A DNA stretch of 64,000 nt from Styela clava (taxonomy: Eukaryota), in assembly GCF_964204865.1 (NCBI RefSeq), contig NC_135254.1, forward strand, positions 21,382,199 to 21,446,198. Direction: 5' to 3'. The translations under genes were made by a program, and so were the position numbers. Of the stretch, positions 6,230-48,000 are shown piece by piece. The notes beneath the pieces were generated by a model. It did no database searches and was not told where the DNA came from. It saw nothing but the letters and a program-made list of their open reading frames with translations. The stretch's first letter is position 1. Each line of letters begins with the position of its first letter.

Positions 6230-6299
6230 GCGTGATTGGAAGTTCCAACGTGTTGGTGCACAAGCTGGGAGACGGCGGCTACATATCTGGCGAAGGAGG

Positions 6300-7253
6300 T
6301 CAGAGCGCTTCGGCGAAACGGAAAAAAAAATGAAGAAAACCCCGAAACATTTGCAAAAAATATACGGACGAGAGGGGTATCAAGACACATATTTTAATAA
6401 CGAGGTTAAATTGGTGTGCATAACAATGTAAAAAATGCGCATGAGGAAAATCTTTTTTTATACAAACTTGAACACCATGTTTCGACCCACTCATGACTGC
6501 CGCGCCGTCATAAGTTTGAGCTATCAATTTTGACTTCGCGTTGTAAGGCTGTAACACTTCTTTCAGTACAGCCGATATCCCGCAAGTCGTGCGATCAACG
6601 ATTGGTACAAAGCTGTGAAATCTCTCGGTAGGTTTACCATCTTTCACAAACCGAAAAATCACAACCAGTTGGGAAACGCACGTGATGTCAGTTGTCTCGT
6701 CAGACTGAATCGAAAGGAACTGGCAATTCTCAATTTCCAGAGCCAAATGTTGTAAATAAATTTTATACATTGAGTCGAGCAAATCATTTTGGATATCCTT
6801 AGATGTCCCTTCCGAAACAGTTGCGGCATCAAGATGATCTCTCAATACTGTATCTAGGGATGCGGTGTATTCCACCATATCCAAAAATACCCCTCTATTA
6901 GAAGAGCCAGCCCGTTCATCGTGCCCACGGAGGGACAGCTCGTGACAACCAATGAACTTCAAAACATCTATCAATCGACCGAGAACATGGCGGTCTTTCT
7001 CGACGTTTTGATTGTGCCGACGAATAGAAACCGCGCGTCCTTCATCCAACTGTGCTGCAAAATTAACATTTCCGAATGTTCGGTATTTTACTGCATTGTC
7101 CGGTTGCTCCATAGAAGATTGATGATCCCTGGCACGCTCGGAAAGATGTTTAAGATCTCTAAAACCAAATTTACACCAACGTGAGTCACGGGCGGTAGCA
7201 AAAAGTAGGCAATAAAAACAAAAAAGTGCATTTTTGTCCTCGCTGTAACACAA
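6300..7253 (-). pseudogene. hAT transposase N-terminal/middle part (TTF-type / ZMYM1-like zinc finger and DUF4371-like region)
   Basis: A Cys/His-rich segment (CYSEDKNALFCFYCLLF...HLSE..RDH) is followed by a region typical of ZMYM1-like hAT transposases. It lies immediately upstream of ORF 5345..6229 on the same strand but out of frame. Confidence 0.5.
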
Positions 7254-8652
7254 CCATTCGTGTTTTTTATACCAAGTTTCTGCGCAGAATGTACGCCGAC
7301 GCTTTCCTCCGTCATGGGATTGTTCCAGTGAACAATTTTTTGGTTGATAAGGCCCAAGACGTTGTGCCTCTAATTTTTGTTCGGAGTGCGAAGTAGTGCA
7401 TCAACCTTATTCATTATGAGGTCTAAGGCTAAGAAATGCGAAGCCGGAAAGAAGTGAGGAGCTCAAAAGGAATGTGGAAAATCGAAAGCAAATGGACTAA
7501 AGGTCTCTAACTGATTCAAATAGCGAAACAAGCGACAAAAACGAAGGCGAGGAAACTATCAACTCTTCAAGCAACCAACGAACGAGAAGGAATGCGTGAA
7601 TATGTCAACACGTTGTTGTAAGAAACGTCGGCATTGTGTCGTCATAATTTCGGGGCTAGCCCCGATGATTTAGTAAAAGAAACAGAAAACAAACGAGACA
7701 AACGCGGCGAGTGGAAGATAAAAGAGAGAATACGATATACAATGAGCAAACCGGGGCAAATTCGGCGTCGCCCCGTCGACGTTCGGCGAAGGCTTTGCGA
7801 GCGAAAAATGAACCATGTCGGGAGAATATGGCTAGTGTAGACAGTCTGTGCAACCGATATTGAGGTATTTTTCGAATATTTTTTATTATACCGAAAAAAC
7901 AACCGGGGCATTGCCCTGGTTGGCCCTATTGACGCGCCGCCACTGCGAGTTTAAGTATAATATAATTAGCTTAGGGGATTGATACTGAGGTAGGTATTGT
8001 AATTTATTGGTTACGAAGGGTTAGAACAAGGATAAAGTAATGGGAGATGTTTTTTCATAGGATCTTTTGAGATTAATGCGGAAGATTCATCAGAGTCAGT
8101 CTTTGTAAACTTGTTCACATATTTCACGTTATTCGATGATTGTGACGTATTCTGAAAAACGATCTGCGAGTAAATGTTTAAAAGATATATGCATATATGG
8201 ATATATGTTGACCTATTAATTATTAGGAGATAAATGAAATTGTTAAATTGATTTTAGGAGGTATTGACCATTAAATTCTTATCACTTTTTATTGGTGTTT
8301 GAAGGATCCAAAAGCAATTTCTGTTAGAGACACAATAGTCACACCATGCAAAAACACTCAACTTTGATCATATCACACTATCTACACTTTGGTCAACAAG
8401 TCAACTCCACAGCAATAGCTTACCTAAACATAAAGTGCATGCCTACATTAAAAGGTAGAAAACCACATCAAATTAAAATCACCAACACAAAATTAAACCC
8501 CTCATGCAGAAAACAAGAGCCATACACGTGTAATAAGAATGATCCCACACAAAGAAAAGAAGCATGACCATGCAATTGTCAGAAACTGAACAGCTATTCA
8601 TAAAAAACACTATCCAAGTATGTCAGTTACCATCTGACAAAGCAAACAACAT

Positions 8653-9339: not shown

Positions 9340-10953
9340 TTATTGTTCTACCAATACGGCGCCGCTAACCTTCAGGGTGAGCGAGTAACTTCGCTCAGAG
9401 CCGTCAGAGTTCAAAGAGTTGAAACACAGGGAATGCTGGCTCACAGATTTACTCATGAAGGGTAGGAACAAATCGGAGCTACTTATTCGGTTGGAGGTAT
9501 TTTTGATAAGTATGTCGTCGAAGCAGTTTGGTAGTGCGTTATTATGAAAATCATAAGCTAATGACAATACTTCAAATTTCATCAGATCTTCAACCTTAAG
9601 TATATTTAGTGATTTGAAGTAATGGTCTACAGTCTACACTTTCATATTTTTTTTTCTTGAAGACAATTCTTAAAAATTATTACTATTAAGTACTTTGCAA
9701 TTTTGAGACTCGTGTTTTGTTTCCATGGAGCCAAACTGAGCAACAGTATCGGATGTGGCTGAGTAATAATGATTGAAACATTGCTAGTAAAGCCGATTGA
9801 TTGACACACTGGGAAACCTTGGCAGCAATTGCCAAATTTCTTTTTGTTTTACCAATAACATGTGTGATTTGTGATTTCCAAGATAGTTTTTTATCAAAGA
9901 TAACTTTCAAGAATTTTATTTCACTCACTCTTTCAATTTCTTTGCCATTGAGTGATAAAGATTTTGAGCAATTCAAATTTCTATGCTGATTAGGATGGAA
10001 TAGACAAATTTAGTCTTGTTGGCATTAAGAGATAGTTTATTAACCAGCATCCAACTGTGAATGTTGGCTAGTTCTCGGTTTGCAACAGCGAATAGATCTT
10101 CCAGATTTTTCCCACAGAGAATCAAGTCTGTGTCATCAGCAAACATGATTGACACAGATGAGTCCAGACACCTAGGCATGTCGTTTATATAAGCTAGGAA
10201 GAATAATGGGCCAATTAAAGATCCTTGGGAAACTCCGTGCTTCATGACACAAATATTAGTAGGGAATGAATTGTCATAGTGTACGACTTGCTTTCTGTAA
10301 TGCAGGTAGCTCCGGATCCAATTGAGTGGAATCCCTCTTATTCCATTTTGATACAGCTTACTTAGAAGGATAGAATGGTCTATGGTGTCAAAAGCCTTAG
10401 AAATATCAAGAAATATTCTAATAGCATGTTGCTTTTTTTCAAACGTCTTTATTAATATATGTACCAAGACAAGAGCAGCCATAGCAGTGGAGTGTTGCTT
10501 ACGGAAACCAAACTGATGCGAATACAAAATATTAGTGCTTTCAAAATAATTTGACATTCTACTATAAATTATTTTTTCAAGGATTTTGGAAAACTACATA
10601 AGAAGACTGATAGGCCTATAGTTTCCATAATCAGAAACATTACCCTTTTTAAAAACAGGGAGAATTTTGGCTGCCTTGAAGCTTTCAATGAATAGTCCAG
10701 TGGATAGTGAGAGGTTAAATATATATGTCGGGATATCAATAATATGTTCTAGAATATATTTCAAAATTTTGAATGGAATACCATCAATTCCAAAGCTGGA
10801 CTTTGGCTTCAATTCGTTTATGATGTTTTTAATTTCTAATGATGTGATTGGCCTTAAAAACATAGATGAGCATTCTTGCTCCCCAAGATATAATAAGTGA
10901 TTTTTATCACAGTCTACAGGTTGCGGCATATTGCCAAGCAAGCTTTGTGCCAC
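9340..10953 (-). mobile_element. non-LTR retrotransposon (LINE) reverse-transcriptase fragment, frameshifted and truncated
   Basis: Three consecutive minus-strand ORFs cover this span. 10594..10953 carries the NYRPISLL motif of RT domains 0/1. 9973..10557 carries FGFRK.HST, ..LD.SKAFD.. and the FADDT (YXDD-type) RT catalytic motif. 9686..9976 carries the RT thumb/C-terminal part. Confidence 0.75.
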
Positions 10954-10979
10954 TTGGGAAAAGTGTTCATTATTTTTAT

Positions 10980-11185
10980 TTTCGGAGCTATTTTAAGAGT
11001 TCTTTTGCGAGTTGGCGCCTGTAAAATGGGATATGTGATTCAAACCATCCTTATGATTCATCGCATACTACATCTGTTTTTTAAATCTACCGGTAAAGAA
11101 TTTAGCCTAGTCTATCACAGCTATTTCTACTCTAATTTTTTGTTACTGCAATCAAATTAAAACTCGGACCTTTCCCCGACATCAG
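10980..11185 (+). repeat. unclassified interspersed repeat (family R2)
   Basis: About 80% similar to 57975..58200 (+) and, in reverse, to 13880..14100. The shared core is GCC(T/C)AGTCTATCACAGCTATTTCTAC(T/A)CTAA. Confidence 0.5.
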
Positions 11186-14100: not shown

Positions 14101-14560
14101 ATTTAAAAAATCGCTTTTCTCTTCGAATACTGGACCAATTGCTTTGATATTTTCAGTGGTTAAAGATAAAATTTTTCTCCAGAAGGCTATTACTTTTTTT
14201 TCGCTATGACGTTATCAAAATTATTGCCACTGGGTGGCGCTACGTGTCCATATATTTGAGCATAGCTCTCTTGTTTCTTGATTTGAATTTAGGTTTCCGA
14301 TACACAACTGAAAACTAACGAATAGAGCTCAAGAACGCGAAAACGAGGTAATGTTTACGACCACGCTTGAAAATCTGTCTGGGTGAGAAAAGTGTCTGAG
14401 CGGATGCGAAAAGGGACCATTGTTACGTCACTTTTTGCATCTTCCTGATTGGCAAATGTCAAGATGTAAGCAAGGAAGTCGATGCTCTGGGAAAGGACCA
14501 TACTAACCACTTTTGAACCTGATATATAAATTGAAATAAGTAAAATTTTGGTCAAGAAAA
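14100..14560 (+). repeat. interspersed repeat family R1 (longest copy)
   Basis: CGCTTTTCTCTTCGAATACTGGACCAATTGCTTTGA...TTTTCAGTGGTTAAAGAT recurs at 40565..40860 (+) and 58195..58480 (+). It appears inverted at 4690..4830 and 24040..24140. Confidence 0.6.
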
Positions 14561-17482: not shown

Positions 17483-18006
17483 TCAGTGGTTCCCAAACTA
17501 TTTGAAAAAAATTCCATGACGGACCCCTTGCAATTTTTTGAATGATTCCCGACCCTGCGCACTAAAACAAAACATTAAAAGATCACAACAAAAAATCAAT
17601 GCGCCGTTAAGTGAAACGAACAAAAGAATATAAAGCGCAACTCTTATGACATGTGTGACATCCAGCCTGTTCCGATATTTGGTAAACGTACAAAAGGGCA
17701 ACAACACCTACAGCCCTGCAGTTAGTAAACTCGTGGTAACATGAATTGAACTCTCTCTGTGATATCACAAGCACACAGCTATGTGACATCACAATGAGGC
17801 AGTGTGATCGAAACAGAAAGTGACGAATCAGTGTCTCCAACGGTGATTACGAAGCAGAAAAAGGCGACAAATGTGTATTTGTAAATTTAAGCACTTAATT
17901 TTTGTATTATCGAGCTATGAGTCATATTACAGATTTGTTTCGCGGACCCTCCGAAAGTACTTCACGGACCCCAAAGGGTCCGCGGACCCCAGTTTGGGAA
18001 CCACTG
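17483..18006. mobile_element. non-autonomous hAT element (MITE, about 520 bp) with perfect 8-bp TSD TACTAGAT
   Basis: The termini are CAGTGGTTCCCAAACT... and ...AGTTTGGGAACCACTG. Identical TACTAGAT flanks sit at 17475-17482 and 18007-18014. Subterminal GGACCCC repeats are present. No coding capacity. Confidence 0.8.
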
Positions 18007-23250: not shown

Positions 23251-24039
23251 CTAATTCTGGGATGCCGGTGTGAAGTTGTTTGGTTGACTTTTTGATTGTT
23301 GCTCGCTGAGCTGTGTGATTTTCTATTGGTTGACAGTTTAACTTGAATTCCCTGTTGTTCTTGTGTTGTCCCCAGTTTTGTTCCTCTCTCTAGCGACAGG
23401 CCCAACGGTTGATGGCCATTGTTTGTTTGTGTGCTGTCGTGTTGCTCGTCATGGTTAGGGCATCCTTGCGTTACATGCACGTGGATTCACTGTGCAAAGG
23501 TGTAGAGCAAGTAAAGGTCGGTAATTTTTATGGTTATCAATATCATATTTGCGATTTGTTTATAAAACAATAGTGGTGCTGGTGCTCGTTTTAAGGGTAG
23601 GCAATGAAGCAGGAAGCCATACATTAGGCGCGTTTTATAAGGCACATTATTTGATATTTAATAAAACTATTTTCAAATCCACTAAAATATTAGATTTAGC
23701 TTCCCTGCCCTATGTAGTGCATTGATTACCATACTCTATGCTTTCGATTATTCGGATGAAAGTGATGAGCCCCATTTACAGATTTAAATGAAACTAGCTA
23801 AATTGCTGTATTGTTGTGCACAAGTATTTTCACTAGAAACAAGGCTTCTCATTCTCATTAAACTCACACAAACTGTTTTGAATAATGTGAGAATTTAAGA
23901 TTATATAGCAGGGGTCACCAAACTACGGCAGGATCCGGCCCGCGTCGTCATTTTATCCGGCCCGCAATAACACACAAATGTGGCCAAATATTTTTCCAAG
24001 AAAAGTTTTCTCGAGCATGGTCTTCCTTATTTATTTCGT

Positions 24040-24140
24040 AACATTGGCCAATCAGCAAGATGCAAAAAAGTGACGTAATAATGGGCCTTTTCGCATCCGC
24101 TCAGACACTTTCGTCACCCTGACAGATTTTCAATCGTGGT
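24040..24140 (-). repeat. repeat family R1 fragment nested in the 23909..29258 transposon
   Basis: Reverse complement of 14390..14480. Confidence 0.45.
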
Positions 24141-25912
24141 TGTAAAAAATACTTTGTTTTTGCGATTTTGAATGCTATAGTAGTATATATTTACGATGTT
24201 ATTCGTTAGTTTCTGGTTGTATTTGGGAAATTTAAGTATGAATCAAATAAGTCAATCATCATTTGCCTCTTTAGGAGTTGTAGTTTAAATAGTAGTAATG
24301 AAAAATTAGTCTAGAAATAGCTGTGACGAAATAGGCTAAAATTCTCTACCGGGAGGCAACGTTTTCTGCGAAAGATGCACGCACCGAAACTGTTTACATC
24401 TTTGTGCTAAAATGAACTTCGAATGTGCATTTTGCGCTAACAGTACTGTAATCCCTCGCGTACTGCTCCAATTTCACAAGTCACACTAATTTTTGTACTG
24501 CTTAACTGATTCATGTAGGTAAGTTACAAAAAAATGAAGTTCATCCGATTTGAATAAAAACTGCGCGAGCGGATAGATCTGAGTGAAAATAAGAAAACAA
24601 TATCCAGTTTATAAAAAAGCGGTCGAGAAATAACGGAGATATCGGAATTTTAGTACCGCCCGACAGGCCATTTTTTTCTTAAGGATTGTGTAACTTTTTT
24701 GATAAGAACTGTAATAAATATGAAAAAAACACATATCAATCACTAACCTTTCAATCTGCGTCACATCTATGGAATATTGAGACTATTTCAGGATTTTTTT
24801 TTCTGGCAACGGTCTTGACACCCCCGACAGTTCGTCGCAAATAAACGCTGGAGTTGTGCATGATGTTTGACCGTAAATATGTTTGACAGTGGTTCATTAT
24901 GGGTAAAATAAAACGATGTTCTGATTGTACAAACTCCATAAAAATTGGTAAGTATCATGTATCAAGTTAGGAAAGAAATACACACGTCCACATAAATTTT
25001 ATTGGTGTCCATAGACAATATCATTAATTTGCACCACGAATGTCTTGGGCGTAATTTTAAAAGCTCCGAATGTTGGGAATTTGTGCCCTAATGATTAAAA
25101 ATCAAATACCAGATAATAGTTGTTTATTTTATCTAAATTATGTCGAAATTTCATGGAATTCCATGCTACAGCAGGCAGTCCGTAGTCGTGCAACGTTTTG
25201 ATAACAGCTAAACTCAGGATTGTCGTCTAGGGCTAGGCTATATATAGAAATTTTGTATATTTGTTTTCCTAGGATGTTCTCGATCCATATTCTGCAATAT
25301 ATATAGAATTTAATTTTCAAGTCTTCAGAAATGTAAAATATATCGCCGGATGAGAACAGAACAGGCCTAAGTCACATTTTTGAGTTTTGAGAAAATCGCA
25401 AAAAACAGTTTTGAATTTTATCATAGTTGAATATCTAGTTATGTATTCTCAGTGAAGATCTGAGCTTTGGCTAGGATAAGGTCCCTGATAATAGCTTTTT
25501 AATCAACATCTTTTGGCACTTCAACTTCGATTCGTTTTCATTTTTTACCCCCCTAAAGACATTTGGCCTATTCTGTTCTCAGTGATAATTGACGGACTTA
25601 GGCCCTTTCTGTCACCCATTGGTTCTTAGGCCCAATATACACTACACAAATTCCTATAATTGTGACTTAGGTCTGTTGGCCTAACATATCTCTGCTTGCT
25701 AATGCCAGTATGCCTCAGTTTTACAGCAGCCTTGTTGTTGTTTTTGTCTTGTGTATTGAATCAAAACAACAGAACAACTAACGAACTACAAAATTAGACC
25801 AATTTTGAATGTGAAGTTTTCAAAAAAGGAATAAAAAAGAAACTGAATATGAAAAATCAAAAAACAATTCAAAGGGTTTGAAACCCTGTGTCTTTAAAAC
25901 TGGTGAATCGAT

Positions 25913-27085
25913 CTAAATAGAGGAAGATTCATCATCACTGTCTGATTCATCTGTTTCATCATTTTGAATGGTGAGACTCTCGTAGAACGTATGGTATTGC
26001 GGTGGAATGAGATTTTTTTTACACAGCTTCATTAAGGCACCATATTTTTCCATTGTAATTCCCGGTTTTTTTTTGTAGCTTCGCCTCATTTCATTCATCC
26101 TGGGTAACATATCCAGGGTTCCTGAAATTCTTCGACTCAACCTCACTTTTTTTATGAATGAAACTTCCTGATATTCTTCTTCTGCATAAAGGTACTTGAA
26201 GAAAAACTTATCAGGTTTTTCACCAGAAAACTTGGCCTGCATGATCTTAGACCATTTGATCTTTGATCCATTCACTTTTAGGTTTGATTTGTAAACGTCT
26301 TGAAACATGGTGAGTTTTTCTCCAAATTTGAAATCCAGGATATCACTATGGGACATTCTAGTCATAGTTATATTTCTATTTTTATTCCCTTTAGTCAATG
26401 CTTGTACGATGACAGATTCCCACTGATCGGTGGTAAAGGTATGCAGCCGTTTTGACTCTTTTTCGATAAGAGAATGTGCACAGTCATTCTCGTTTTGGCT
26501 ATGCCCTGTAACAAAAAAGCTTAACGTTATATCTGAAAATCCAAACCAATTAAGGGCAAGGGATAGCATGATGTATACCATGCGGTTGCAATTTTGTCCT
26601 GCGCATCTGTCACAAAAAAGGTACACACTCTTCACACCCTTTTTTTGTAAAAACTTCAAGTAGAGCAACAGTGCAGACGCCACCTCATTTGAACCCTTTT
26701 TTGCTTCTTCCTCATTCCACAAGTAACAATGAACTTCTTTAAAAGACGAGATGTCCGAAACTGTGAAGTTGTAGTTTCGCAGTCTCATGCTATAGTAAAA
26801 TGAGGAACTCTCTCCTGCAGGTGCCAGGAGTGTTTTTTGAAAGTCAAATGCTGATGCTTGAATATGGCTATTGTCTTGTGCTTTTTCTTTTATTTGTGCT
26901 TTGAACACCCTGCTCAAGTTCTTTTCTTGATCATGTTCTGCCTTTGATTTTACTATTTCGGTAGTTCTCAATGAATCTTTTGTATTGTCCCATGCATCAC
27001 ATATGTCACATCGATCCTTTTTGGGTTGATGAAATTTTATATTAAAATTATCATGAAAAATGGACAAGTAAGCTTCGTATTTCAA
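25913..27085 (-). CDS. transposon ORF 2 (390 aa): putative DDE-type transposase catalytic region (family not recognised)
   Basis: Contains spaced acidic residues in conserved-looking blocks (YLFCDRCAGQN ... FFVTGHSQNENDCAHSLIE) and a C-terminal acidic tail. It does not match hAT motifs. It may be one gene with ORF 1 via frameshift, or a separate one (4-nt overlap). Confidence 0.45.
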   Translation of the reverse strand: MKYEAYLSIFHDNFNIKFHQPKKDRCDICDAWDNTKDSLRTTEIVKSKAEHDQEKNLSRVFKAQIKEKAQDNSHIQASAFDFQKTLLAPAGESSSFYYSMRLRNYNFTVSDISSFKEVHCYLWNEEEAKKGSNEVASALLLYLKFLQKKGVKSVYLFCDRCAGQNCNRMVYIMLSLALNWFGFSDITLSFFVTGHSQNENDCAHSLIEKESKRLHTFTTDQWESVIVQALTKGNKNRNITMTRMSHSDILDFKFGEKLTMFQDVYKSNLKVNGSKIKWSKIMQAKFSGEKPDKFFFKYLYAEEEYQEVSFIKKVRLSRRISGTLDMLPRMNEMRRSYKKKPGITMEKYGALMKLCKKNLIPPQYHTFYESLTIQNDETDESDSDDESSSI

Positions 27086-28536
27086 GGGATTCTCAATGTT
27101 ATTTGAGGCAAATATTGATATTTAGACTCCTTTCGAACATAGTGACTTTGAACTGTCTTAAACATACAAATATGTTCAATTACCTTTTCCACTTTTTTTG
27201 GATCAAATCTGTTATGGGGTACAGTTATACCACGCATATCATTTTCAACACTTCCAATAAATTCTTTTGATAATGCTGTTCTAACTTGTTTTCTTGAAAC
27301 ATCAAGAGTTGTGAGGAAAAATGTCTGACAAACCTCAAACTGATCTCCACTTTCCTTCTGAAGAAAATATTTGAAACTAACATCTCTTTTTTTGCGTCTG
27401 ACTTCAATATCTGGTCTCAATCTGCTTCTTTTAATTTTGCATTTTTCAATCATTTTCGTAATATAAATTCTTTTTGACAATATGTTATCTAATTTCCAAT
27501 AATTTTCAAATAAAACTTCTCTGTCCTTGGCAGAAAATATTTCATTGCACTTTTTTTTACATGAACTAGAACATGTTTTCTTTATTTCTCTTTTAGGCAT
27601 CAATCTAATTTCTTTATTTTTTGTTCTGTATTGGTAAGACTGTCCATGCATTCGAGCTTCCTTCCTAATATTTCTCTGCCACTTGGAGATATTTCTTTTT
27701 CTTTTTCTTTCTGTCAAAGGAGTAGGTGTTATCCAGTCTGTTGAACACTGTTCATTAACCTGATTTTCTGTTTGGTCACAAAGCTTATTTATGTCACACA
27801 GATTCCATGTGATGGCAGTACCTTCCTTGTGTTCTACAAGGTTAAAATATGGCCAATGGATCGCAGTTTGGAACACTTTAGTTATAAAAAAACTTCCTTG
27901 TCTATCCTCACAGTGAACACTTCTACACTTTGCTTTGAATATGGGATATCTTTCATAGCATAGAATTACTTCTTCACTTTCGACGACTGAAATGTCAACC
28001 TGGTGCTGTACTGTGGAATTTGATTTATCACTGTCAGATTCATTGTTTTGAGCCGTCCAATAACATGGCATAGACTGAGACTTTTCCTTCTCATAATTAT
28101 AAGTTGGATCTTTATCTGAATCATCATTATAATATTCAAAAGATTCATCTGATAAATTTTCTTCCTGGTCTTCGTTTTGAGAATTTTGAGCTTCAACAAG
28201 GACAAAATCTTTTTCCTCATCACCGATATCAAGTTTTAAAGCATTTTTTGGAACTGAAGTTGTTTGATTGTCAATAAAAAATTTGACTCGAACAGTGTTG
28301 GAGTAGACGCAAACTATCACTCCTTTTAACAGCGTCTTATCTTTATATGGTAAACTATTACTGTATTCACGCTGTTCATTATCGAAATATGTAGCAGGGA
28401 GATAAACTTCTTTTCCTGTTTGCAGAATCTGACTCTCAGTGCTATCCCAACTTCGTGTGCCACAGGGGAATTCAGATTCAGGACCTAACATTGCTTCACT
28501 GATAAATTGTATATAGCTTTGGGAAAAGTTAAACAT
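27082..28536 (-). CDS. transposon ORF 1 (484 aa): acidic Asp/Glu-rich protein with possible N-terminal Tudor/Agenet-like fold and basic Cys-containing middle region
   Basis: Long uninterrupted ORF inside the nested TIR element. It has an N-terminal W..G..V.A.Y.D....Y.G.I..V......V.F pattern, an acidic low-complexity stretch and basic KRKR/KKK clusters (putative NLS or DNA binding). Its stop overlaps the start of ORF 25913..27085 by 4 nt. Confidence 0.5.
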   Translation of the reverse strand: MFNFSQSYIQFISEAMLGPESEFPCGTRSWDSTESQILQTGKEVYLPATYFDNEQREYSNSLPYKDKTLLKGVIVCVYSNTVRVKFFIDNQTTSVPKNALKLDIGDEEKDFVLVEAQNSQNEDQEENLSDESFEYYNDDSDKDPTYNYEKEKSQSMPCYWTAQNNESDSDKSNSTVQHQVDISVVESEEVILCYERYPIFKAKCRSVHCEDRQGSFFITKVFQTAIHWPYFNLVEHKEGTAITWNLCDINKLCDQTENQVNEQCSTDWITPTPLTERKRKRNISKWQRNIRKEARMHGQSYQYRTKNKEIRLMPKREIKKTCSSSCKKKCNEIFSAKDREVLFENYWKLDNILSKRIYITKMIEKCKIKRSRLRPDIEVRRKKRDVSFKYFLQKESGDQFEVCQTFFLTTLDVSRKQVRTALSKEFIGSVENDMRGITVPHNRFDPKKVEKVIEHICMFKTVQSHYVRKESKYQYLPQITLRIP

Positions 28537-31075
28537 ACAAGATTATTAAGTAGAACACAATTTAATACATACAAGACTACTAAATAGCACACAATTTAAT
28601 ATTTATAATCTTTAAATTATTATGCAGTTATACTTAAAGCCTGCTATTCAATATACCAAGGCTCTTATCCCATTTAATATCTAACTTTCCAGGGTAAGCT
28701 ACCTCTAGTAACCTGTTTCCTGTAGCACATGCTCATAAGTATAACTGCAATATGCTTTATCAGTTGTCTTCATCACAATGAATAATTTGTTTCAGCCAAT
28801 CAGGACAATCATATTTATTTTTTCATGTTCTTTGGGACTACTTGATTCTAAACTTTGCCATAGAATGGGCCTATGTTCATTTTGACAGTAAATATGTGGG
28901 ACTGAAAGGGCCTAAGTCCAGCATATTGGACATAGGCCTGTTCTGTTCTCAACACCTCTATGATTATAGCATTCCTAAGTCCAGCTAAAATTTTTATTAT
29001 TGAGAAATTCAGGATTTCAAGACCACCATCTTGTAGAGCATGGCTCAAAACCCCAAAATATTGAAAAAAGTGAATTTTGCAAAAATGTGACTTAGGCCCC
29101 TTCTGTTCTCATCCGGCGATATATTGTTGAATAAATTGAATGGATTCCCCAATTTTTGTGAATTTATTGTATTGCATTAACAAAAATATTTGTCCGGCCC
29201 ATTTCAACATAGTTTGAGTCATACCCGGCCCACGGTCGAAAAAGTTTGGTGACCCCTGTTATATAGGAATAAAATAAAATCTGAATTTCTGGAAGGATAA
29301 ATTTTGGTATGCAATCTCGTTAACCTAACAATGACAGGGTTCGGGTTAGGAACAGAATTCTCTGAATTTTTTTTTGAGATCACACATTGAGCAAGTGGTA
29401 TCATGTACAAAAGGAGTTTAATGACGCATACCAAAGTAGCGTCCAAATTTTTTTACAATGTTTACAAATGCATAAATGCTTTGATAGTGATTTACTGGCA
29501 ACACAACTTTCTTAAAAAAAAATTAAAAAAATTTGTTGTTGTTTTGGTTACGTAAAATTATAAATGCAAAACAAGGTAACGAGCTATTGTGCGAATTTTT
29601 TTCCGAAATTTTACCAAGGAATTATCATTTGACTAGTAGAATTGCCATTATTGGTGTCAACAAAACTTATATTATTCACAGTTTTATTTTTAGTATTTTA
29701 TATTGCCGCTTTTCAACTTTTCGACATAGTTAATGCTTTGTTCTTTGCCCGCGAATTATGCTGGGCCTTGCACGAAATCAATAACGTGAAAAGATACGTC
29801 CAGCGGTGAAAATTGTTTATAACAACTTTAGATCTAGTTAATTTTTTAGCGATAATAATTAATTGTTGTAATGAAACACAGTTTGCCTCTTTCATTTCTC
29901 TCGCAAGTGCCAACAATAACACTATTGAAAGATTTTGACAATGAGAAAATCATTTTAAATTGTACAAAATGAATTAGTTGTGCAAAACCGTGGCGCGTGA
30001 TCGGCGGTGCGTTTGAAGACGGAGTATGACCCGTGCTGGCGCGCATTTTTCACGAAAATGTGAGGTGCTCCGAAGGCGCCCTGATCCACATTATTGTAAG
30101 AAAACAGTTATAATATCGGTAACTATTAACCGTTTAATTGCGTTTGACTATCGCACTTTTCGGAAATGGTAATTTTGTAAGGCGGGAACAACATGTGTTT
30201 TTGCGAAATTATTGGGGGGGCGACTGCCCCCCCTCGCCCCCCCGGGTGTCCGCCCCTGCTCTACCTGGTTTTACTTTGAAATGCTGAAAGTTTGTCGCGC
30301 ATTTGCAAGTCCCCACGGCGAAACCATTGGGAACCGCTACATTGCACCGTTTTTCTTTATCAATATAACCCTTTCATTTTTTGGTGTTCCGCGAGGAGAT
30401 ATAAAAACTGTGGCCGAAAAATGGAAACTTTCACGTATAGCAAAACAAAATATTTCATCATCTATCCGCTGAAAGGAATATGCGGTGCGGTAACCTAACA
30501 GTACCATACCTGTAGCCCTGATATTCGATCGCGGGACCGCCTGAAACAATTTAAAAACAGTGTTCCATGATTTTTGATGTCACAATCACTAACGCTTACA
30601 TTTATCCTAATACAGTGTAACCATGTTTCCCATGTGCCGAAACATCACTGTCCATCGGCTAAATGCTTGATTGAAACATCAGCGCAACAGTTAATACAAG
30701 ATAGAATTTTATAATATTGCACATCCCTAAACGTGTCGTTGGAAGTTAAGTTTCAGTAAACAGAAAGGTTGGTGATGAGCACAGACAATTTCAAAAAACT
30801 GGGAAATGCAATATTTCTTTGTTGAGCGTATGAGCATCCTGACATGTTTTATCTGCACAATTGAAGTTGCTGTGCACAAGGAATACAATTTAAACGAGTT
30901 GCTCAGCTTTTATTGTGGAAAACCTGATGTGGCCCGGACTCATTTGAGACTCTGCCCCAGCAAAGCTGCCCCAAAGAAGCTTCACGTACCGGCAGTTGGG
31001 AACCACTGTTCTAGTACATCGTTACATTACACCAGTTATACGAGTTGAATTTGGTTCAAATTTGGTTTGGAAAAA

Positions 31076-32992: not shown

Positions 32993-33282
32993 GTAGGCAA
33001 TGGGTTTAAATGAACTATTTTATTGCTGTATTTTCATCCCAATGATAATATATATATATTTTATATTGCCAAGATAAAATTGGGAATTGGGTATACTTCA
33101 TAACACTTCAATTATCATTGTATATTGTAGCACAGCTGATGTTTGGTGAATAGAGATATACTTTTTATCTCATGTCAAAATTAAAAATTCACTCATAGTC
33201 TCTATGCTTCTTGCACTTCTATTAATTGGAACATTTTCAATTTAATATTGTTCACCAAACAAGTTTGATTTTGTATTGTCAG

Positions 33283-36200
33283 AAAATGAAAGAGTTCCAA
33301 AGAAGAAAAATATATTTGATAAACTTCAATTCGCCCTTGAACTTGGAGATGCATCATTTGAAACAAAGAAGACTTTACGTGAACAGATAACAAGTCATGG
33401 AGGACAAATCTCATACATATTGACCAGTAATACTGATTTTATAGTTCTTTGCAAGGAATTGATTGCCCAATCTATGCATTCATATAAAATTCGCAAAGCA
33501 GTTGCATTTGGCGTACCTATTGTTAGTGAAGAATTTCTCACAGAATGTGTAGGGAAGAATCAACTTGTCGATTTCATGGATTTTGCTCCGCAGACTGATA
33601 CAATTCACAATTTTTCGTTGGGAAAAATATCATCACAACCCATCAATGTAAAAAAGTTTGTTTCTAAAAAATTGGACCTTGGAAAAATTGTACAATATAA
33701 ATTAGAATCTGGTGACTGTCCTTGTTTTCCAAATAAATATGAAGTTCCCAAATTTTCGATTTTAACAAAAAGTTTTGAAGAGAATGGTGAAATTAATGAA
33801 ATGTGTTGTGTTGAAGCACAGGTTGGTATAACTGCAAATCAGAATAATCAAAAGATGTATAGAGTCATGGTTTCATATAACAATATTAGCACTTGCTCAA
33901 CTCATCACGTGTATCCATTAAATAATTCATTTGAGTTAGTCCAGTGTTATGAAAAACTTGTAACACAGTTCCTTGATGATGGAATGAAACGAGCTATTGG
34001 AATTTCAAAGGATCAATTCTCTGATATTGTTTCACCTTCACTCAACCTTGTTTTAACGGAAATGAAAATTTCATCAGGAATTCTCCATCCTGAAGTCGCA
34101 CGATTAGTCAAAACTATTTGGCTGGATTCGCTAGACGAAATAATGATGACATTTGGTGTCGGGCCATATGGTATTGATGTTGAACAAGTCAGAAATGCAT
34201 TGATTGTTCTGATGCAAATAGAAAAGTCCATCAAAGAGAAAGATTTCAAATCAGCTTTATCTGACAAATTTTACCACTTTATTCCACAGACAGATGATAA
34301 AAAAGAACCAATTGACAGCATTCAAAAAATTGCAAAGAAAAGAGAATTATGTCAGCTTTTAAAAGACATCACTTTAGTGAATGAGACTTCTTGGTTTTCT
34401 AAGGACTGTAATGATTCTTTATCACAATACACCGCATTGAAGTGTGCTATAATGTGGATTGACCCAAAAGAAAAAGAATATAAACTCATCAAAGACACAC
34501 TTCCTGACATCGATGGAAAAACATACAAATTGCAAAATATATTCAGAGTCAGTCGCTCTGTTGAAAACTCGCAGTTTAAATCAGATATTGGCAATACTAA
34601 ACTTCTATTTCATGCATCCCACCCTCATAATTTTGTTGGTATTTTATCGAGAGGTTTAATGTTGCCACTCACACTGTCTAGTGAGTATGGAGTCTCAAGG
34701 AGTGATGAAGGAAACCTTGGCGCTGGAATTTATTTCTCAGATTCATTTTGGATGTCTTCAAAATTTACCGCACGAAGCCAAAGTCGAGGTTCCAGAATAA
34801 TGCTTGTTAGTGAAGTAGCACTGGGAAAAGTATTCAACACAAAGGAACCTATGGCCCATTTATTGGCTGCACCAGTGGGTCACGATAGTGTGAAACGCAC
34901 GCATGCCACAGATGCAGTTAAATCTGATGCTTCAGAATATGCAGTGTATAACAAAAATCAACAGAGGATGTGCTACATCATTGAATTCACAATTGATGAT
35001 GATAGTTTGGTTAATCATGACAAAGTAGTGATACCTTTAAGTTTTAAGATGAATAAGAACACTACCGCTGAAATTGCTGCTGAGCGTGAGAATTTTGAAC
35101 CAAAAGTTGAGGAAGTTAGATATGGCCTGATCATGGAATCAAAAGATATTTCTGCAATATTAGAGGAAGTTCATATCAGAGCAAAAGTTATTGATTTGGT
35201 GTCAGAAGTCACTATTTTTCAGTCGTACATCAATACAACCAATAAAACTGTTGAAGCAAAATATGTTTTTCCTCTCACTGAAAACGCTGCTGTATGTGGA
35301 TTTGAAGCTTTTATAAATGACAAACATGTAATAGGAGAAGTTAAAGAGAAAGAACAAGCCCACAAGGAATATAAAAAAGCAGTAAGCGAAGGTCATGGAG
35401 CTTATTTGATGGATGAAGAGAAATCTAATGTATTTTCTGTTAGTGTTGGTAACATTCCTCCTGCAGCTCGCGTAATCATTAAAATTAGTTATGTTGCTGA
35501 GCTCGAAACTACTAACGAACCTGACAGTAATGTTTTATTTACATTACCAGGAAGCATTGCTCAATGGGAGGAAAAATCTGTGTTGCTTTCAAGTTCTGCT
35601 ACTCAAGAAGTTACGGAATCAACTTCTGTTTCAAATGAGAAAAAATCTTCAGTTATAATATCAATTGATATGCCGTTTGATATTCTCGATATCACTTCAC
35701 CTACTCATAAAATTGTAATGAAAAAGACATCTACAAAGGCTTGTGTAAAACTGCAAAAGTCAATTAACCTGGATGGAAACAATTTTCGTTTGCTGATCAA
35801 AGTAGCTGAAATTCATGTTCCTCGTATTTGGATTGAAAAGGAAAATGAAGAAAGCAAAGATCAAGTGGCAATGGTGACTTTTTTTCCTGAATTTGAATTC
35901 GATGCAGTAGAGAATTTCAATTGCACAGTAATGTTGGATATGTCGAATTCCATGAAAGGATCTGCTGCATGTCATTCTAAGCATTTATGTTCATTGCTTA
36001 TCGAAAATTTGCCAGATCAATGTGATTTTAATGTCATCTCATTTGGGTCATATTTCGAAGAGGTGTTCATTGGATTTGAAAATGTTTCAACTACTTCTAA
36101 AAAACAAGCAAAAGATTTTATTACATGTTGTAAACCATCTTTTGGAGGATCTGATCTTTTTTACATTCTTAATTCAGTCTTCCTACTTCAAAATAATTCA

Positions 36201-39200
36201 TACAATAATGAGTTACATAATATATTCCTCTTTTCTGATGGTCATTTGTCTGAAGAGGAAAGACTTTTCAGGCTTTGTAAGGAAATTTCAAAAACCAGTC
36301 ATTGTCAAACAAGAATTTTTACATTTGCTGTTGGAAATTCACCAGATAACCACACTCTACAGAGTTTATCTATATTAACTGGAGGGTCTCATGAACAATT
36401 CTTATCTTCGTCAAAGAGGACATGGAAAAGACAATTAAGCAATCAACTATTCAATGCTAAACAACCTGCATTAACTGATGTACATATTGATTGGTGCAAC
36501 TATGATAACAAATCCGATGGTTTTCAAGATTCAACTGTTTTGCAGGTTCCAGAAAAAGTAAAATGTGTGTTCAGTGGATCTCAACTTGTCGCATACAGTT
36601 ATGTTCCAAACTGTCTGAAAGCAACTCTTTGTGCTAATATTAATGGAAAAGAGTTCTCTACAATGGTAAATGCGAACGGATTATCAAAAATTACTGGAAT
36701 GACATTGCACAGACTTGCAGCAAAAGCTGTGTTCAAGGAACATGACTGTGGTAGACTTGCTGATGATGCTTTGTGTGATCAGATGTTGAAAGAGGAAAGA
36801 AAGTCAATTATTATTTCAATGAGTATGAAATACTCAGTTGTTTCAAAATATACAAGCTTTGTAGCTATTGAGGAAAGAAAACCTGGAGAAGATTTAAGCA
36901 TAACATGTGGACCATCTCTATCTAATCTTGTTGATGAATCTTTCATTGATATCATTTCTGAAGTAACATGGGGGGCTGAAGAGAAATCTGTGGAAGAAAA
37001 TGTGGATGAACTACTGAAGAAGTCTTTGCAAATTCAATCAAGTTCTATACTGCAATCTCGGGATTTAGCTCTGGAAGCAAAAGCATTGCATAGCACATTG
37101 GAAGAAAAAGATCCACTGAGGAAGTTACGAATATGTGCGACGTTATGTAAATTGGATGTGAACAGCGATCAACTTGATGCATGGCTTGATTTGAAAACCA
37201 TGTTGTTGAAAACTGATAAATCACTGAATTTTGAAGTGATGAACACGATCGCTAAATTTGACAATTCATCGCCCAGACATAATTTGTTGGATATTTTTAG
37301 TAGCTGTTTTCCTGAACACTGTTCAGTCCATCTCCAATCTATTCCTGAAATTTTTCAGCCACTTGCCATTGGAGGATACACTGAAATCTGTCATTTTTAT
37401 GAAACTGTGGGAGAATGTTTTAGAGATTTTCCTCTTTTTTGGGAAGAGTTTCATGATGTTTGTTGTTGTGATGATAAGAGTTATAAGGATGTTTCTTTGG
37501 CATTGAAAGTCTTGATCAGAGAATTGAAGTTTATAAATAAACCTCACAAAAAGAAAAAAAGGTACAAGCCCAAATTATGCCCATTTTCAATAGCCACCCC
37601 ACCATCATCACTACCTAGGCCTCTACAAGCTGTTCCACCACATCTAACACCAATACCAGCAAATTCATCTCTATTTGGATCAGCAAGATCAGGTATTTCA
37701 CCATTACCACCACAGCAATCTTTTCTCTTTGCATCATCTGGTCCTCCGCCACATCCACCACCTGGATCTGACTTTACACCATTACCACCACCATTACCAC
37801 CGAAACCATCTGTATTTGGATCAGCAATTCCACCACCACAACTACTACCTGGATCAGGTATTTCACCATTATCACCACAGCAATCACTTCTATTTGGATC
37901 ATCTGTTCCGCCACCTCCACCACCTGGATATGACTTTCCACTACCACCAAAATCATCTCTATTTGGATCATCTGTTCCCCCACCACAACCACCTCCGCCA
38001 CCTGGATCTGTCTTTCCACCATCACGACATCAACAACCACCAAAATCATCTCTATTTGGATCATCTGTTCCCCCACCACGACCACCTCCGCCACCTGGAT
38101 CTGACTTTCCACCATTACCACCACCACTACCACCAAAATCAGCTCTATTTGGATCATCTGTTCCCCCACCACAACCACCTGGATCTGCCTTTCCCCCATC
38201 ACCACATCGACAACCACCAAAATCATCTCTATTTGGATCATCTGTTCCCCCACCACGACCACCTCCGCCACCACTACCACCAAAATCATCTCTATTTGGA
38301 TCATCTGTTCCCCCACCACGACCACCTCCGCCACCACTACCACCAAAATCATCTCTAGTTGGATTAGATGTTCCCCCACCACGGGCACCTACACCACCTG
38401 GATCTGCCTTTCCACCATCACCACCACAATCATCTTGTTTTGGATCAAGTCCTCCACAACCACCGCTTCCAAAATTTAGATCTGTCATCCTACCACAATT
38501 GCGAAGTTCTGGATTTGTATCAGCCACTCCAATATCGCAACAGTATCAAACTGAATCTGCCATACCACCTCAATATCATTTAAGCAATATAACTTCTTCA
38601 TTTCTTTCGATGACTGACCCACTAGTTCCATCGCAATCTTCAGTCCAATCAGCAGCAGGTTTTTCATTTGGTTTGGCCAGGTCTTTTGCATCGCGAAATT
38701 CAATGCGGTCAGTTGCTTCATTTGGATATTCGTCCACTTCCAGGCAATCAAACACCCCACTACCTACACAAGCTGCGTGCATGGTATCAAATGCTGAACT
38801 CACTTCAGATGATAGTTTTGACACTAAACCATCATATCATCATTCTTCTGAGGTTGCTAGAAGTAATTTTTATGAAGAGTGTGAGGATTCATATTTGTTA
38901 CCAAAAACGAAAAATCTATTATCCAGAAAATCCGAACAATCTCAAGATATTGAAACCAAACAAATTTTTGGTGGAAGATCTAAATTTGACAATTCACATG
39001 AACCACAGGATATTTATGAGAGCTTGGAGGATCTTAAGTCACAACAATTAAAGACCAGTGGAAAAAGAAGAAACCCACCAGTAGTTCTTACAAGGTCTTC
39101 TCAAAGTTGTGAAGTTATGTTTGATTCACTTGAATGTGTTCAGACAGATACATCTACATTAAACTCTGAAAGTTCATCTGATATGTATGAAGATATAATA

Positions 39201-39230
39201 TTGTTAAATCAACATTATGACCTGGTTATG
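33283..39230 (+). CDS. PARP4-like (vault-PARP-like) gene A giant exon: BRCT, PARP helical regulatory domain, PARP catalytic (ART) domain, VIT, vWA, Pro-rich repeat region, Ser-rich tail
   Basis: A 5.9-kb open frame with a splice acceptor (TTGTCAG) at 33276-33282. It has a BRCT-like N-terminus. An HD-like block (..ALSDKFYHFIPQ..) follows. The ART motifs are LLFHASHPHNFVGILSRGL, GAGIYFSDSF, LVSEVALGK and ASEYAVYN, giving an H-Y-E triad. VIT spans KYVFPLTENAAVCGFEAFIND...VIIKISYVAELE, then the vWA MIDAS motif DMSNSM follows. The donor GTAAGT sits at 39231. Confidence 0.85.
37660..38460 (+). repeat. intragenic tandem repeat, about 10 units of 90-96 bp, encoding (K.SSLFGSSVPPP[RQ]PPPPPGSDFPPLPPPLPP)n
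   Basis: Recurrent TCTCTATTTGGATCATCTGTTCCCCCACCAC(G/A)ACCACCTCCGCCACC units are visible. Poly-His, Gly-rich and Val-rich ORFs in the other frames and on the opposite strand are by-products. Confidence 0.85.
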
Positions 39231-39581
39231 GTAAGTTATTTTTATGAACTATTTTACTTGATTACCGATGAATATATCTAGACCTGCCGTGTTACTTCCC
39301 AATTATATCTATCTGCCTGAACTAACGCAGACAATATGCCAGGAATTTAATATTTTATGAAATGTCTGTACTATTTGCAATAATTTGTTGAATGGGTTGA
39401 AGAAATGTAAATTTAGCTTTGTTTTTTGACACAAAAAACACTTCATATTGAGTGTTCATTTCATTATTTGTTTGTTCATTCTTATTTCTATACAAATCGA
39501 TTTATTGATGAGTAAAGCCATCCACATTTATGAAGTAATGCTGAAAGTGCATAAAATTGGTAATTCACATTTTATCAACAG

Positions 39582-44996: not shown

Positions 44997-45073
44997 ATTT
45001 AGACAACACTAATCCCAGTTGCAAAAAAAAAACAGTTCTTAGGGATCATTTTTTACCTATTTGTTGTTTTCAG

Positions 45074-48000
45074 AACAAAAAAAACTCTCAAAACATGGAA
45101 GCATTTTCAAGAAACTTCAGTTTTCTCTGGAACTAGGGGATACGACGTATGAAGCAAAGAAACATTTGCGTGAACAGATCACTAGTAATGGAGGACAAAT
45201 TTCCTATATTTTAAATGGAAATACTGATTATCTGATTGTGTGTGAGAGAAAAACTTCCACATCGAGTAAGTCCTACAAAATTCACAAGGCAAGAGAACTA
45301 GGAATACCCATTGTGAGAGAGATCTTCATAACAGAATGTATTGAAAACGATAAAATTGTTGATTTTCTGGATTACGTTCATGGAAAACCAATTGTTGAGA
45401 GTTATTCTGCTGGGAAAATATTGGTTTCTAAGGCAAAGCCGAAGGAGCCTTCTGAAAGATTCGAAGTAGAAAAAGTCATTAAATATAAAGTTGATGCTGG
45501 AGACTGCCCTGTTTTTCCAGATAATTTCCAAGTAGCCAAATACTCTATTCTCGCAAAAATTACTGAAGAAAGAACACCAAATGATATGTATTGTGTTGAA
45601 ACACAGGTTGGGTTACACGATAACTGCAAAACAATATTTCGCGTCATGGTTTCCTATAAAAATGTCAGTGGTGTATCATTTTGTCATGTTTATCCTGTGC
45701 AAACTTCATCAGAGGTGGTTCAGTGTTATGAGTCCTTGGTAAAGCAGTTTATCGCTGATGGATTCAAGAAAGTCATTGGAATTCCTGGCGATGGGTTCTC
45801 TGGAATTGCTTCTGCTCCACTGAGTTTGCTTTTAAATGAAATGAAAATTTCATCTGGAATTATTCATCCCGAGGTCGCTCGATTGGTAGAATCTGCGTGG
45901 TTAGAATCTCTTTGTGAAATAATGACAAATTTTGGTGTTGAACCTTTTACTATACATCATGAACAAATTAGGAATGCAATGATTGTTCTGATGCAGATAG
46001 AAAATTCAATCAAAAGAAAAAGTTTTAAATTGGAATTATCAAATAAGTTTTACCAGTTTATTCCCCAAAGAGATGGTAGGAAGGAACTGATAGACAACAT
46101 GCAAAAGATCGCAAAAATGAGGGAATTATGCCAGCTTTTGAAAGACATAACCTTGTCCAATGAAACTTCTTGGATTTCTAAAGACTTCAATGATCGCCTG
46201 TCACAATATACCGCATTGAAGTGTGCTATAATGTGGATTGACTCGAAAGAAAAAGAATATAAACTCATCAAAGACTTACTTCCTGATAATATCGATGGAA
46301 AAGGATACAAAGTACAAAATATATTCAGAGTCAGTCGCTCTGTTGAAAACTCGCAGTTTAAATCAGATATTGGCAATACTAAACTTCTATTTCATGCATC
46401 CCATCCTCACAATTTTGTTGGTATTTTATCGAGAGGTTTAATGTTGCCACTCACACTGTCTAGTGAGTATGGAGTCTCAAGAAGTGATGAAGGAAACCTT
46501 GGCGCTGGAATTTATTTCTCAGATTCATTTGAAATGTCTTTGAAGTTTACAGCTCGAAGCCAAAGTCGTGGTTCCAGAATAATGCTTGTTAATGAAGTAG
46601 CACTGGGAAAAGTATTTTATACAAAGAATCCCATGACTGATTTGATAGTCGCGCCAGAAGGCCATCATAGTGTAAAAGGTACAGGTCTAACAAAATTTGA
46701 TGATGTTGACGACATTGCATCTCATGCTTCAGAATACGCGATATATGATGCAAGGCAACAGAAGTTACGCTACCTTATTGAATTTACAACGACTGATGAC
46801 ATCATGACTATTTATGACAGAGTTCCAGTCCATTTACCTTTTAAACAAAAAGAGGATAAGCAGGTGAATGAAACAGTGGGTGATAATGAGAATTTTGAAC
46901 CAAAAGTTGAGGAAGTTAGATATGGCCTGATCATGGAATCAAAAGATATTTCTGCAATATTAGAGGAAGTTCATATCAGAGCAAAAGTTATTGATTTGGT
47001 GTCAGAAGTCACTATTTTTCAGTCTTACATCAATATGACCAATAAAACTGTTGAAGCAAAATATGTTTTTCCTCTCACTGAAAACGCCGCTGTATGTGGA
47101 TTTGAGGCTTTTATAAATGACAAACATGTAATAGGAGAAGTCAAAGAGAAAGAACAAGCTCAAAAGGAATATAAAAAAGCAGTAAGCGAAGGTCATGGAG
47201 CTTATTTGATGGATGAAGAGAAACCTAATGTATTTTCTGTTAGTGTTGGTAACATTCCTCCTGCAGCTCGCGTAATCATTAAAATTAGTTATGTTGCTGA
47301 GCTCGAAACTACTAACGAACCCGACAGTAATGTTTTGTTTACATTACCAGGAAGCATTGCTCAATGGGAGGAAAAATCTGTGTTGCTTTCAAGTTCTGCT
47401 ACTCAAGAAGTTACGGAATCAACTTCTGTTTCAAATGAGAAAAAATCTTCAGTTATAATATCAATTGATATGCCGTTTGATATTCTGGATATTACTTCAC
47501 CTACTCATAAAATTGTGACGAAAAAGACATCTACGAAGGCTTGTGTAAAACTGCAAAAGTCAATTCACCTGGATGGAAATAATTTTCATTTGCTGATCAA
47601 AGTAGCTGAAATTCATGTTCCTCGTATTTGGATTGAAAAAGAAAATGAAGAAAGCAAAGATCAAGTTGCAATGGTGACTTTTTTTCCTGAATTTGAATTT
47701 GATGCAGTAGAGAATTTCAATTGCACTGTAATGCTGGATATGTCGAATTCCATGGAAGGATCTGCGGCATCCCATTCCAAGCATTTGTGTTCATTGCTGA
47801 TCGACAATTTGCCAGATCAATGTGATTTTAATGTCATCTCATTTGGGTCATATTTCGAAGAGACGTTCATTAGATATGAAAATGCTTCGACTACTTCTAA
47901 AAAACAAGCAAAAGATTTTATTACATGTTGTACACCATCTTTTGGAGGATCCGATCTTTTTTACATTCTCAATTCAGTATTCCTACTTCAAAATAATTCA

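Follow-up and report, generated by a model that had tools for sequence, protein, structure and literature searches.

A stretch of 64,000 nucleotides from the tunicate Styela clava (NCBI RefSeq assembly GCF_964204865.1, contig NC_135254.1, positions 21,382,199 to 21,446,198 of the forward strand), referred to here as the window and numbered from its first letter, contains a 5.35-kb element with hAT-like ends. A second DNA transposon lies within this element and carries two overlapping open reading frames (ORF1 and ORF2) on the minus strand. The first-pass annotation of this DNA had proposed that the two ORFs represent an uncharacterised transposase family, either mobilised as the passenger of a hAT shell or present as a nested insertion. 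The data presented here indicate that the locus is very probably a defective Sola1 copy nested in a non-autonomous hAT-type element, both being transposons of known kinds. The positions of the features are given in Table 1.

The terminal inverted repeats (TIRs) of the outer element were perfect over 16 nt, CAGGGGTCACCAAACT being found in the plus orientation at the left end and in the minus orientation at the right; with up to three mismatches permitted, shuffled sequences gave an expectation of 0.33 chance matches in the window. The octamer TTATATAG was located immediately outside both ends, forming a perfect 8-bp target site duplication (TSD). Its second base is T and its seventh A, which is consistent with the hAT target nTnnnnAn. 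The first five nucleotides of the terminus, CAGGG, are consistent with YARNG. An 8-bp TSD and a YARNG terminus are typical of hAT elements (PMC3014272), and in the case of Hermes the target is nTnnnnAn and the BED domain binds subterminal repeats (PMC10368747). Subterminal CCGGCCC repeats were present in the left arm at 23935 and 23957 as well as in the right arm, and these four exact copies, all in the outer arms, were the only ones in the window. The DNA belonging to the outer element alone had no ORF longer than 62 aa, and no hAT transposase was found inside the element. The first-pass description of hAT-like termini, a perfect 8-bp duplication and an interior without a hAT transposase was therefore sound.

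A repeat search of the window identified an inverted repeat of 46 nt (25337–25382 and 29080–29125, 96% identical) at the ends of the inner element. The termini were refined to 25344 (CGCCGG...) and 29118, giving 39-nt TIRs with 37 of 39 positions matching; the 3.8-kb element and TIRs reported previously are real, while the bounds then given (25334–29128, with TIRs of ∼42 bp) have been moved inwards. The register of this boundary was taken from a related element (encoding protein P0002; ENA ERZ25072740) that is present on two contigs, L001 and L002, which could be aligned with one another only between their 51-nt TIRs. These TIRs begin CGTCGG, and the copy on L001 is flanked on both sides by a non-palindromic 4-bp TSD, ATTT. 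A 4-bp target of the form AWWT/AWDT is a hallmark of Sola1 transposons, and the TIR of the non-autonomous Sola1_NA elements is given as GGACCGTTTATTTTGAAAGTGGTGTAAGTCCATTTT (PMC3845634). On the strength of L001 and this literature, a 4-bp TSD, ATAT, was chosen for the window copy. Sequences matching GGCCTAAGTC with no more than one mismatch numbered seven in the window, six of them within ∼330 bp of the inner ends, as would be expected from the subterminal arrays noted in the first reading. The hexamer TAAGTC occupies positions 25–30 in both window TIRs, in the TIRs of L001 and in the Sola1_NA TIRs of Bombyx mori and Heliconius melpomene. Since the subterminal GGCCTAAGTC repeats have TAAGTC as their core as well, it is probably a transposase-binding site.

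A Pfam scan matched ORF2 to DUF7869 (PF25273) with an E-value of 3.6e-10, above the gathering score. The Sola cores given in the supplement to Majorek et al. 2014 (PMC3985635) served as references and were compared with ORF2 by BLASTP. The core of Sola1-1_AP, a pea aphid member of the Repbase Sola1 group (RNase H-like group E.10, Majorek et al. 2014), was identical at 53 of 128 residues (41%, E 2e-32) in an alignment that covered the blocks AFDxxK, SFYY, NFT, GSNE, DxCxGQN and GH(S/T)Q. The core of Sola2-1_HM gave a match (E 0.005) restricted to 50 aa surrounding the second Asp, and that of Sola3-1_HM was not matched. When 50 diverse relatives were aligned, residues D565, D643 and D685 proved invariant, as were H448, Y449, R451, D508, C510, C513, H535, C309, C313 and C386. 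In the window copy, all three Asp codons remain intact (26843–26845, 26609–26611 and 26483–26485), and these residues were inferred to be the catalytic triad from their place in the Majorek alignment and from the description of Sola transposases as DDD enzymes. ORF2 combines a zinc-binding-like KKDxCxxC motif with a predicted RNase H-like DDD core. In ORF1, Cys305, Cys309, Cys313 and Cys386 were invariant among the aligned relatives and an ESHYxR motif was conserved.

The family is very large: in an exhaustive profile search, 18,516 cluster representatives passed a threshold of E ≤ 1e-3, and 2,857 passed E ≤ 1e-30; word-indexed homologue searches returned just five to six proteins. DUF7869 was matched above the gathering score in 47 of the 50 relatives and, to judge from these alignments, is evidently the Sola1 catalytic core. 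By homology, the inner transposase is assigned to the Sola1 superfamily. It had previously been held that ORF2 could not be assigned to a superfamily, Sola1 not being among those considered; that statement is not supported, and the proposal of an uncharacterised transposase family is refuted by the Sola1 match, a result of the kind named beforehand as deciding against novelty. The Sola superfamily was described in 2009 by Bao et al., who reportedly noted a DDD triad and 4-bp TSDs.

A query of ORF1 and ORF2 joined together matched P0001, an uncharacterized 874-aa protein of S. clava (LOC144432013). When this protein was aligned with the window by tblastn, residues 1–460 matched ORF1 at 460 of 462 positions, the sole difference being one 2-aa indel, and residues 479–874 matched ORF2 with zero substitutions. 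Residues 461–478 were absent from the window copy, leaving an 18-residue gap at the junction of ORF1 and ORF2, where 54 nt have been replaced by 2 nt, a deletion of 52 nt. The window copy therefore differs from the intact 874-aa copy by two indels and zero amino-acid substitutions, a match that by itself makes S. clava or a very close relative almost certainly the source of the window. The deleted stretch includes a conserved MHRMY motif, of which M468, H469, M471 and Y472 are conserved in the family, and the relatives P0002–P0004 are all single ORFs in which the 18 residues and the MHRMY block are kept. As P0001 and its relatives are single ORFs containing the missing block, ORF1 and ORF2 are read as the halves of one transposase gene and the two-ORF layout as damage; judged by its translation, the window copy is defective and would yield no full-length transposase. 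The lengths given earlier for the two ORFs (484 and 390 aa) and their 4-nt overlap were correct, and it is the intact two-ORF protein that has been replaced by one gene split by a 52-nt deletion. The NCBI gene model places its start within ORF1, at 28491. A small intron joining the two ORFs (GTAATT...TTTAAG, near 27150–27182) was also considered and was rejected, since P0001 shows a plain 18-residue gap.

Table 1. Positions in the window of the outer and inner elements and of their parts
Feature	Position	Strand	Remarks
Outer element, non-autonomous hAT-like	23909–29258		5.35 kb with the inner insert
Left outer TSD, TTATATAG	23901–23908		8 bp; same as 29259–29266
Right outer TSD, TTATATAG	29259–29266		
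Left outer TIR, CAGGGGTCACCAAACT	23909–23924	+	Exact inverted match to 29243–29258
Left arm of hAT-like element	23909–25339		Non-coding filler
Fragment of unrelated interspersed repeat	24013–24349		Inside the outer element
Right arm of hAT-like element	29123–29258		136 bp; includes right TIR (29243–29258, minus) and CCGGCCC at 29194 and 29225
Sola1-superfamily DNA transposon, predicted defective copy	25344–29118		3,775 bp; gene on minus strand; from TIRs and transposase homology
Left Sola1 TSD, ATAT	25340–25343		Same as 29119–29122
Right Sola1 TSD, ATAT	29119–29122		
Sola1 TIR at 3′ end of gene, CGCCGGATGAGAACAGAACAGGCCTAAGTCACATTTTTG	25344–25382	+	
Sola1 TIR at 5′ end of gene	29080–29118	-	
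GGCCTAAGTC-type subterminal repeats, left	25364–25673		25364 (+), 25595 (-), 25664 (-)
GGCCTAAGTC-type subterminal repeats, right	28909–29098		28909 (+), 28929 (-), 29089 (-)
ORF1, 484 aa	27082–28536	-	N-terminal 460 residues of transposase, six out-of-frame codons, stop
ORF2, 390 aa	25913–27085	-	C-terminal 402 residues of transposase; TTG start
52-nt deletion junction	27104–27105	-	Removes residues 461–478 (PTLDVATMHRMYIRFCAE) and shifts the frame
Clade-specific N-terminal module, ∼residues 26–81	28249–28416	-	Predicted small SH3/Tudor-like beta-barrel

As the inner unit is bounded by TIRs and a TSD that belong to it alone, the arrangement was interpreted as a nested insertion, which was one of the two possibilities raised by the first-pass annotation. 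The Sola1-type TSD further indicates that the inner element arrived by transposing and does not represent captured filler. Removal of 25344–29122 restores a continuous hAT element of 1,571 bp that reads ...GTAAAATATATATTGTTG... across the join. The simplest history is an in-place insertion of Sola1 into the hAT element. A non-autonomous hAT-type element of ∼1.57 kb would first have inserted at TTATATAG, duplicating 8 bp; its mobility would require a hAT transposase from elsewhere that recognises the CAGGGG... termini and the CCGGCCC repeats. Sola1 would then have inserted at ATAT, with 136 bp of the hAT element left to the right of the insertion and with duplication of 4 bp. Elements of the Sola1 group encode one transposase of ∼870 aa with an N-terminal Cys-rich region, presumed to bind DNA, and a putative RNase H-like D-D-D core (here D565, D643 and D685); by homology it is presumed to bind the 39-nt TIRs and the GGCCTAAGTC repeats, to excise the element and to re-insert it at AWWT. 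The window copy lacks 52 nt from mid-gene, which removes 18 residues and shifts the frame. Both ends have been kept, and mobilisation in trans could still be provided by an intact paralogue, for example LOC144432013.

Alternatively, Sola1 may have entered a hAT copy elsewhere, after which a hAT transposase moved the 5.35-kb composite to this site and created the TTATATAG duplication. This passenger scenario differs from the history above in the order of events only, and the hAT shell would then spread the Sola1 copy. The perfect outer TSD and TIRs, together with a Sola1 coding sequence that has no amino-acid substitution relative to its paralogue, place both events in the recent past. Non-autonomous hAT elements of the hobo type in Anolis are reported to carry other transposable elements (TEs) as filler and to amplify them (PMC3014272), so the scenario would not be new in kind. 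However, the right arm outside the insert is only 136 bp, whereas Hermes requires ∼220 bp per end (PMC10368747), an objection tempered by ∼256-bp MITEs (miniature inverted-repeat transposable elements) with the same termini as the outer element, which are evidently mobile (see below). No second copy of the composite was found in the window, and a single in-place insertion is more economical. The passenger scenario is thus considered unlikely, and insertion of Sola1 into a hAT element already in place is preferred. Both insertions look recent, whichever came first, in agreement with the youth that the first-pass annotation had ascribed to these copies.

Several observations weigh against the nested hAT and Sola1 interpretation. 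Neither the window nor 785 kb of metagenome contigs bearing the outer terminus yielded a hAT transposase whose termini match. The ATAT duplication falls within a palindromic AT run, so that the window copy alone fits a TSD of 2, 4 or 6 bp, and the flanks of the related element on L002 differ (TTAT and AATT) in the same register. The window contains one copy each of the outer and the inner element. A full-length AlphaFold2 model of the transposase, made from a seven-sequence alignment, had a mean pLDDT (predicted local distance difference test score) of 55.6, giving weak support to the RNase H-like fold.

The outer terminus was compared with environmental sequences. Its first 20 nt were found, without mismatch, in more than 120 metagenome contigs of the Joint Genome Institute (JGI), where they bound the ∼256-bp MITEs mentioned above. 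Repeats of CCGGCCCGC follow the shared 20-nt terminus in these MITEs, and seven perfect 8-bp TSDs were identified, six of which are consistent with nTnnnnAn. The sequence in common with the outer element is confined to the first ∼58 bp, and for that reason the MITEs are regarded, on this comparison, as a sister family and not as further copies of the outer element; the exact scan with the first 20 nt detected no copy of the outer element itself in the JGI contigs. The outer terminus is also like the ends of Charlie-type hAT MITEs. Because no cognate transposase was found, the hAT assignment draws on the termini and the TSD, and the outer element is best called a non-autonomous hAT-type element, its superfamily being inferred from these features. 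It is very unlikely that the ends belong to another superfamily with a TSD of ∼8 bp (P, Merlin, Novosib or MULE). Such an origin would be compatible with the lack of a cognate transposase, with a call made from TSD length and terminal motif, and with the single weak match given by the hAT protein encoded elsewhere in the window when it was used in a tblastn search of the terminus-bearing metagenome contigs. The YARNG terminus, the short 16-nt TIR, the short subterminal repeats and the nTnnnnAn target, seen here and in six of seven related MITE insertions, favour hAT.

Two further explanations concern the inner element, and both are extremely unlikely. A new transposase superfamily with a genuine two-ORF organisation would accord with the only Pfam label being DUF7869, of unknown function, and with a profile search of PDB sequences that gave no meaningful match and hence no sequence-related solved structure, but it is contradicted by the clear homology to Sola1-1_AP, by the Sola1-type TSD and TIR architecture, by the single-ORF structure of the intact paralogue and of all homologues examined, and by the size of the transposase family (>18,000 cluster representatives). 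Equally implausible is programmed frameshifting or coupled translation at the 4-nt overlap, producing a DNA-binding ORF1 protein and a fused or separate catalytic ORF2 protein: the overlap exists and both halves are otherwise undamaged, but it arises because 52 nt that the paralogue retains have been lost, the missing segment has the family-conserved M468, H469, M471 and Y472, the only start available to ORF2 is TTG, and translational coupling of this type is not known as a eukaryotic mechanism.

The Styela element shares with the Sola1 group the blocks AFDLxK, SFYYxxR, NFT, GSNE, DxCxGQN and GH(S/T)QNExDxxHSxIE, three invariant Asp residues, a single long transposase ORF (as seen in the family), a 4-bp TSD of the AWWT type and long TIRs with TAAGTC at positions 25–30. 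It differs from other Sola1 elements in its tunicate host and constitutes a new family, and it differs from known members in a clade-specific N-terminal extension of ∼170 aa with a predicted SH3/Tudor-like barrel and, in the window copy, in the 52-nt frameshifting deletion. The terminal bases are CGCCGG in the Styela element and GGACCG in the insect Sola1 MITEs. The Sola1_NA MITEs of Bombyx mori, Rhodnius prolixus and Heliconius use the same AWWT/AWDT 4-bp target (PMC3845634), and their TIRs of ∼36 nt contain ...TAAGTCCATTTT in the same register as ...TAAGTCACATTTTTG in the window TIR; these MITEs are non-coding and 250–700 bp in length, whereas the window element is nearly full-length and retains its gene. 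The outer element resembles other non-autonomous hAT elements and hAT MITEs in its 8-bp TSD, CAGGG terminus, nTnnnnAn target, subterminal repeats, lack of a transposase gene and filler interior that includes other repeats. Unlike the hobo-type carriers of Anolis, the TE carried here has its own TSD, which indicates that it transposed in and is not gap-repair filler; no autonomous partner of the outer element was identified.

The N-terminal region of the transposase was also investigated. Approximately 170 N-terminal residues of P0001 are absent from its closest relatives, P0002–P0004; in their pattern, these residues are shared with P0009 and P0012. Residues 1–105 gave no Pfam match at E ≤ 10, including to the Tudor, Agenet, chromo and PWWP profiles. 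The first-pass annotation had suggested a Tudor/Agenet-like N-terminus; a predicted SH3-like barrel is plausible, and a specific Tudor or Agenet identity is not established.

The near identity of the window copy and P0001 suggests that the Sola1 family is young and may still be active. A bolder proposal, that the family is active now, that this clade has gained N-terminal SH3/Tudor-like barrel domains which tether integration to particular chromatin and that the hAT shell moves the 5.35-kb composite, is entertained tentatively and is regarded as doubtful. If the family does prove to be active, the S. clava Sola1 would be a tractable first example of a transposing Sola element; to our knowledge, no Sola element has been shown experimentally to transpose. 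With what seems to be a very young Sola1 family, one or more of whose genes are intact, S. clava is a candidate species in which a Sola transposase could first be studied functionally.

As a routine nested transposon insertion, the locus has little import for biology at large. The consequences for annotation are more direct. Pfam labels PF25273 (DUF7869) as a domain of unknown function, while the comparison made here indicates the catalytic core of Sola1 transposases, and the many 'uncharacterized protein' models that match this domain seem to represent transposases of the same group. Where two ORFs of the ORF1/ORF2 kind are called, they should be read as frameshifted copies. In hosts ranging from insects to tunicates, TAAGTC keeps the same place in the TIRs of Sola1 elements, which points to a conserved putative binding site for the transposase. 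A literature search for DUF7869 found nothing, and no paper on Sola elements in Styela was found.

Additional observations were made on relatives of the inner element. The Sola1 copies on L001 (3486–9404) and L002 (3032–9404) are ∼5.9 kb in length, 99% identical and eukaryotic; their 5′ subterminal region contains a variable array of ∼151-bp tandem repeats, and a piggyBac transposase gene adjoins one copy. The copy on L003, which is the P0004 locus, is degenerate or truncated, had no clear TIR pair and was uninformative with respect to the TSD. In a spider gene model, P0005 (Oedothorax gibbosus JTE90_028125), SATB-type ULD/CUTL domains are fused to a Sola1 transposase of which only the N-terminal half is present; the model is a chimeric annotation or else a possible case of domestication or fusion. 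In the window element, two tandem 34-bp repeats, 88% identical, at 28533–28600 span the first 4 nt of ORF1 and the upstream 5′ untranslated or promoter region.

The metagenome MITEs that share the outer terminus are highly repeated, with 8-bp TSDs near nTCTAGAn. Examples were located at L011 3138–3394, L028 3984–4271 and L065 3464–3719, among contigs L004–L123. The JGI projects bearing them were JGI24021J15306, JGI24022J15233, JGI24158J21664, JGI24159J19872 and Ga0210059, and these assemblies evidently include animal host DNA.

Two other hAT elements are present in the window. A 523-bp hAT-like MITE at 17484–18006 has perfect 16-nt TIRs (CAGTGGTTCCCAAACT), a perfect 8-bp TSD (TACTAGAT) and subterminal repeats of the GGGTCCGCG type, and its terminus matches that of the outer element at 13 of 16 positions. 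A hAT-coding element at 4932–7945 has perfect 15-nt TIRs, (G)CAGTGGCGGCGCGT, without a matching 8-bp TSD; its minus-strand ORFs (6300–7253 and 5345–6229) encode DUF4371 and the hAT C-terminal dimerisation domain, and the transposase is frameshifted. The possibility that this element is the outer element's autonomous partner was considered and rejected, as the TIRs of the two differ (CAGTGGCGGCGCGT and CAGGGGTCACCAAACT).

The interspersed repeat fragment inside the left arm of the outer element was 72–84% identical to window positions 58141–58451, 14329–14487 and 11087–11165, which fall within copies of the repeat at 58029–58460, 14287–14494 and 10978–11165. The repeat is ∼430 bp in length, and a CCAAT box (GGCCAATCAG), together with a TGACGTAA motif, gives it a promoter-like look. 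Neither a tRNA-derived feature in the window nor a tRNA-like part in the repeat was found.

The remainder of the window is TE-rich. By eye, a fragment of a non-LTR (long terminal repeat) retrotransposon reverse transcriptase was recognised at 9973–10557 on the minus strand, and integrase- and RNase H-like ORFs of a BEL/Pao-like LTR retrotransposon at 60448–63595, also on the minus strand. A tandem pair of paralogous ORFs, each uninterrupted and respectively 2,001 and 1,913 aa long, is located on the plus strand at 33276–39281 and 45061–50802. On inspection by eye they contain a BRCT-like N-terminus and PARP-catalytic-like and VIT/vWA-like regions, and they are like PARP4 (vault PARP). The ORF at 33276–39281 has a long proline-rich repeat tail, and both PARP4-like ORFs are strikingly intron-free for their size.

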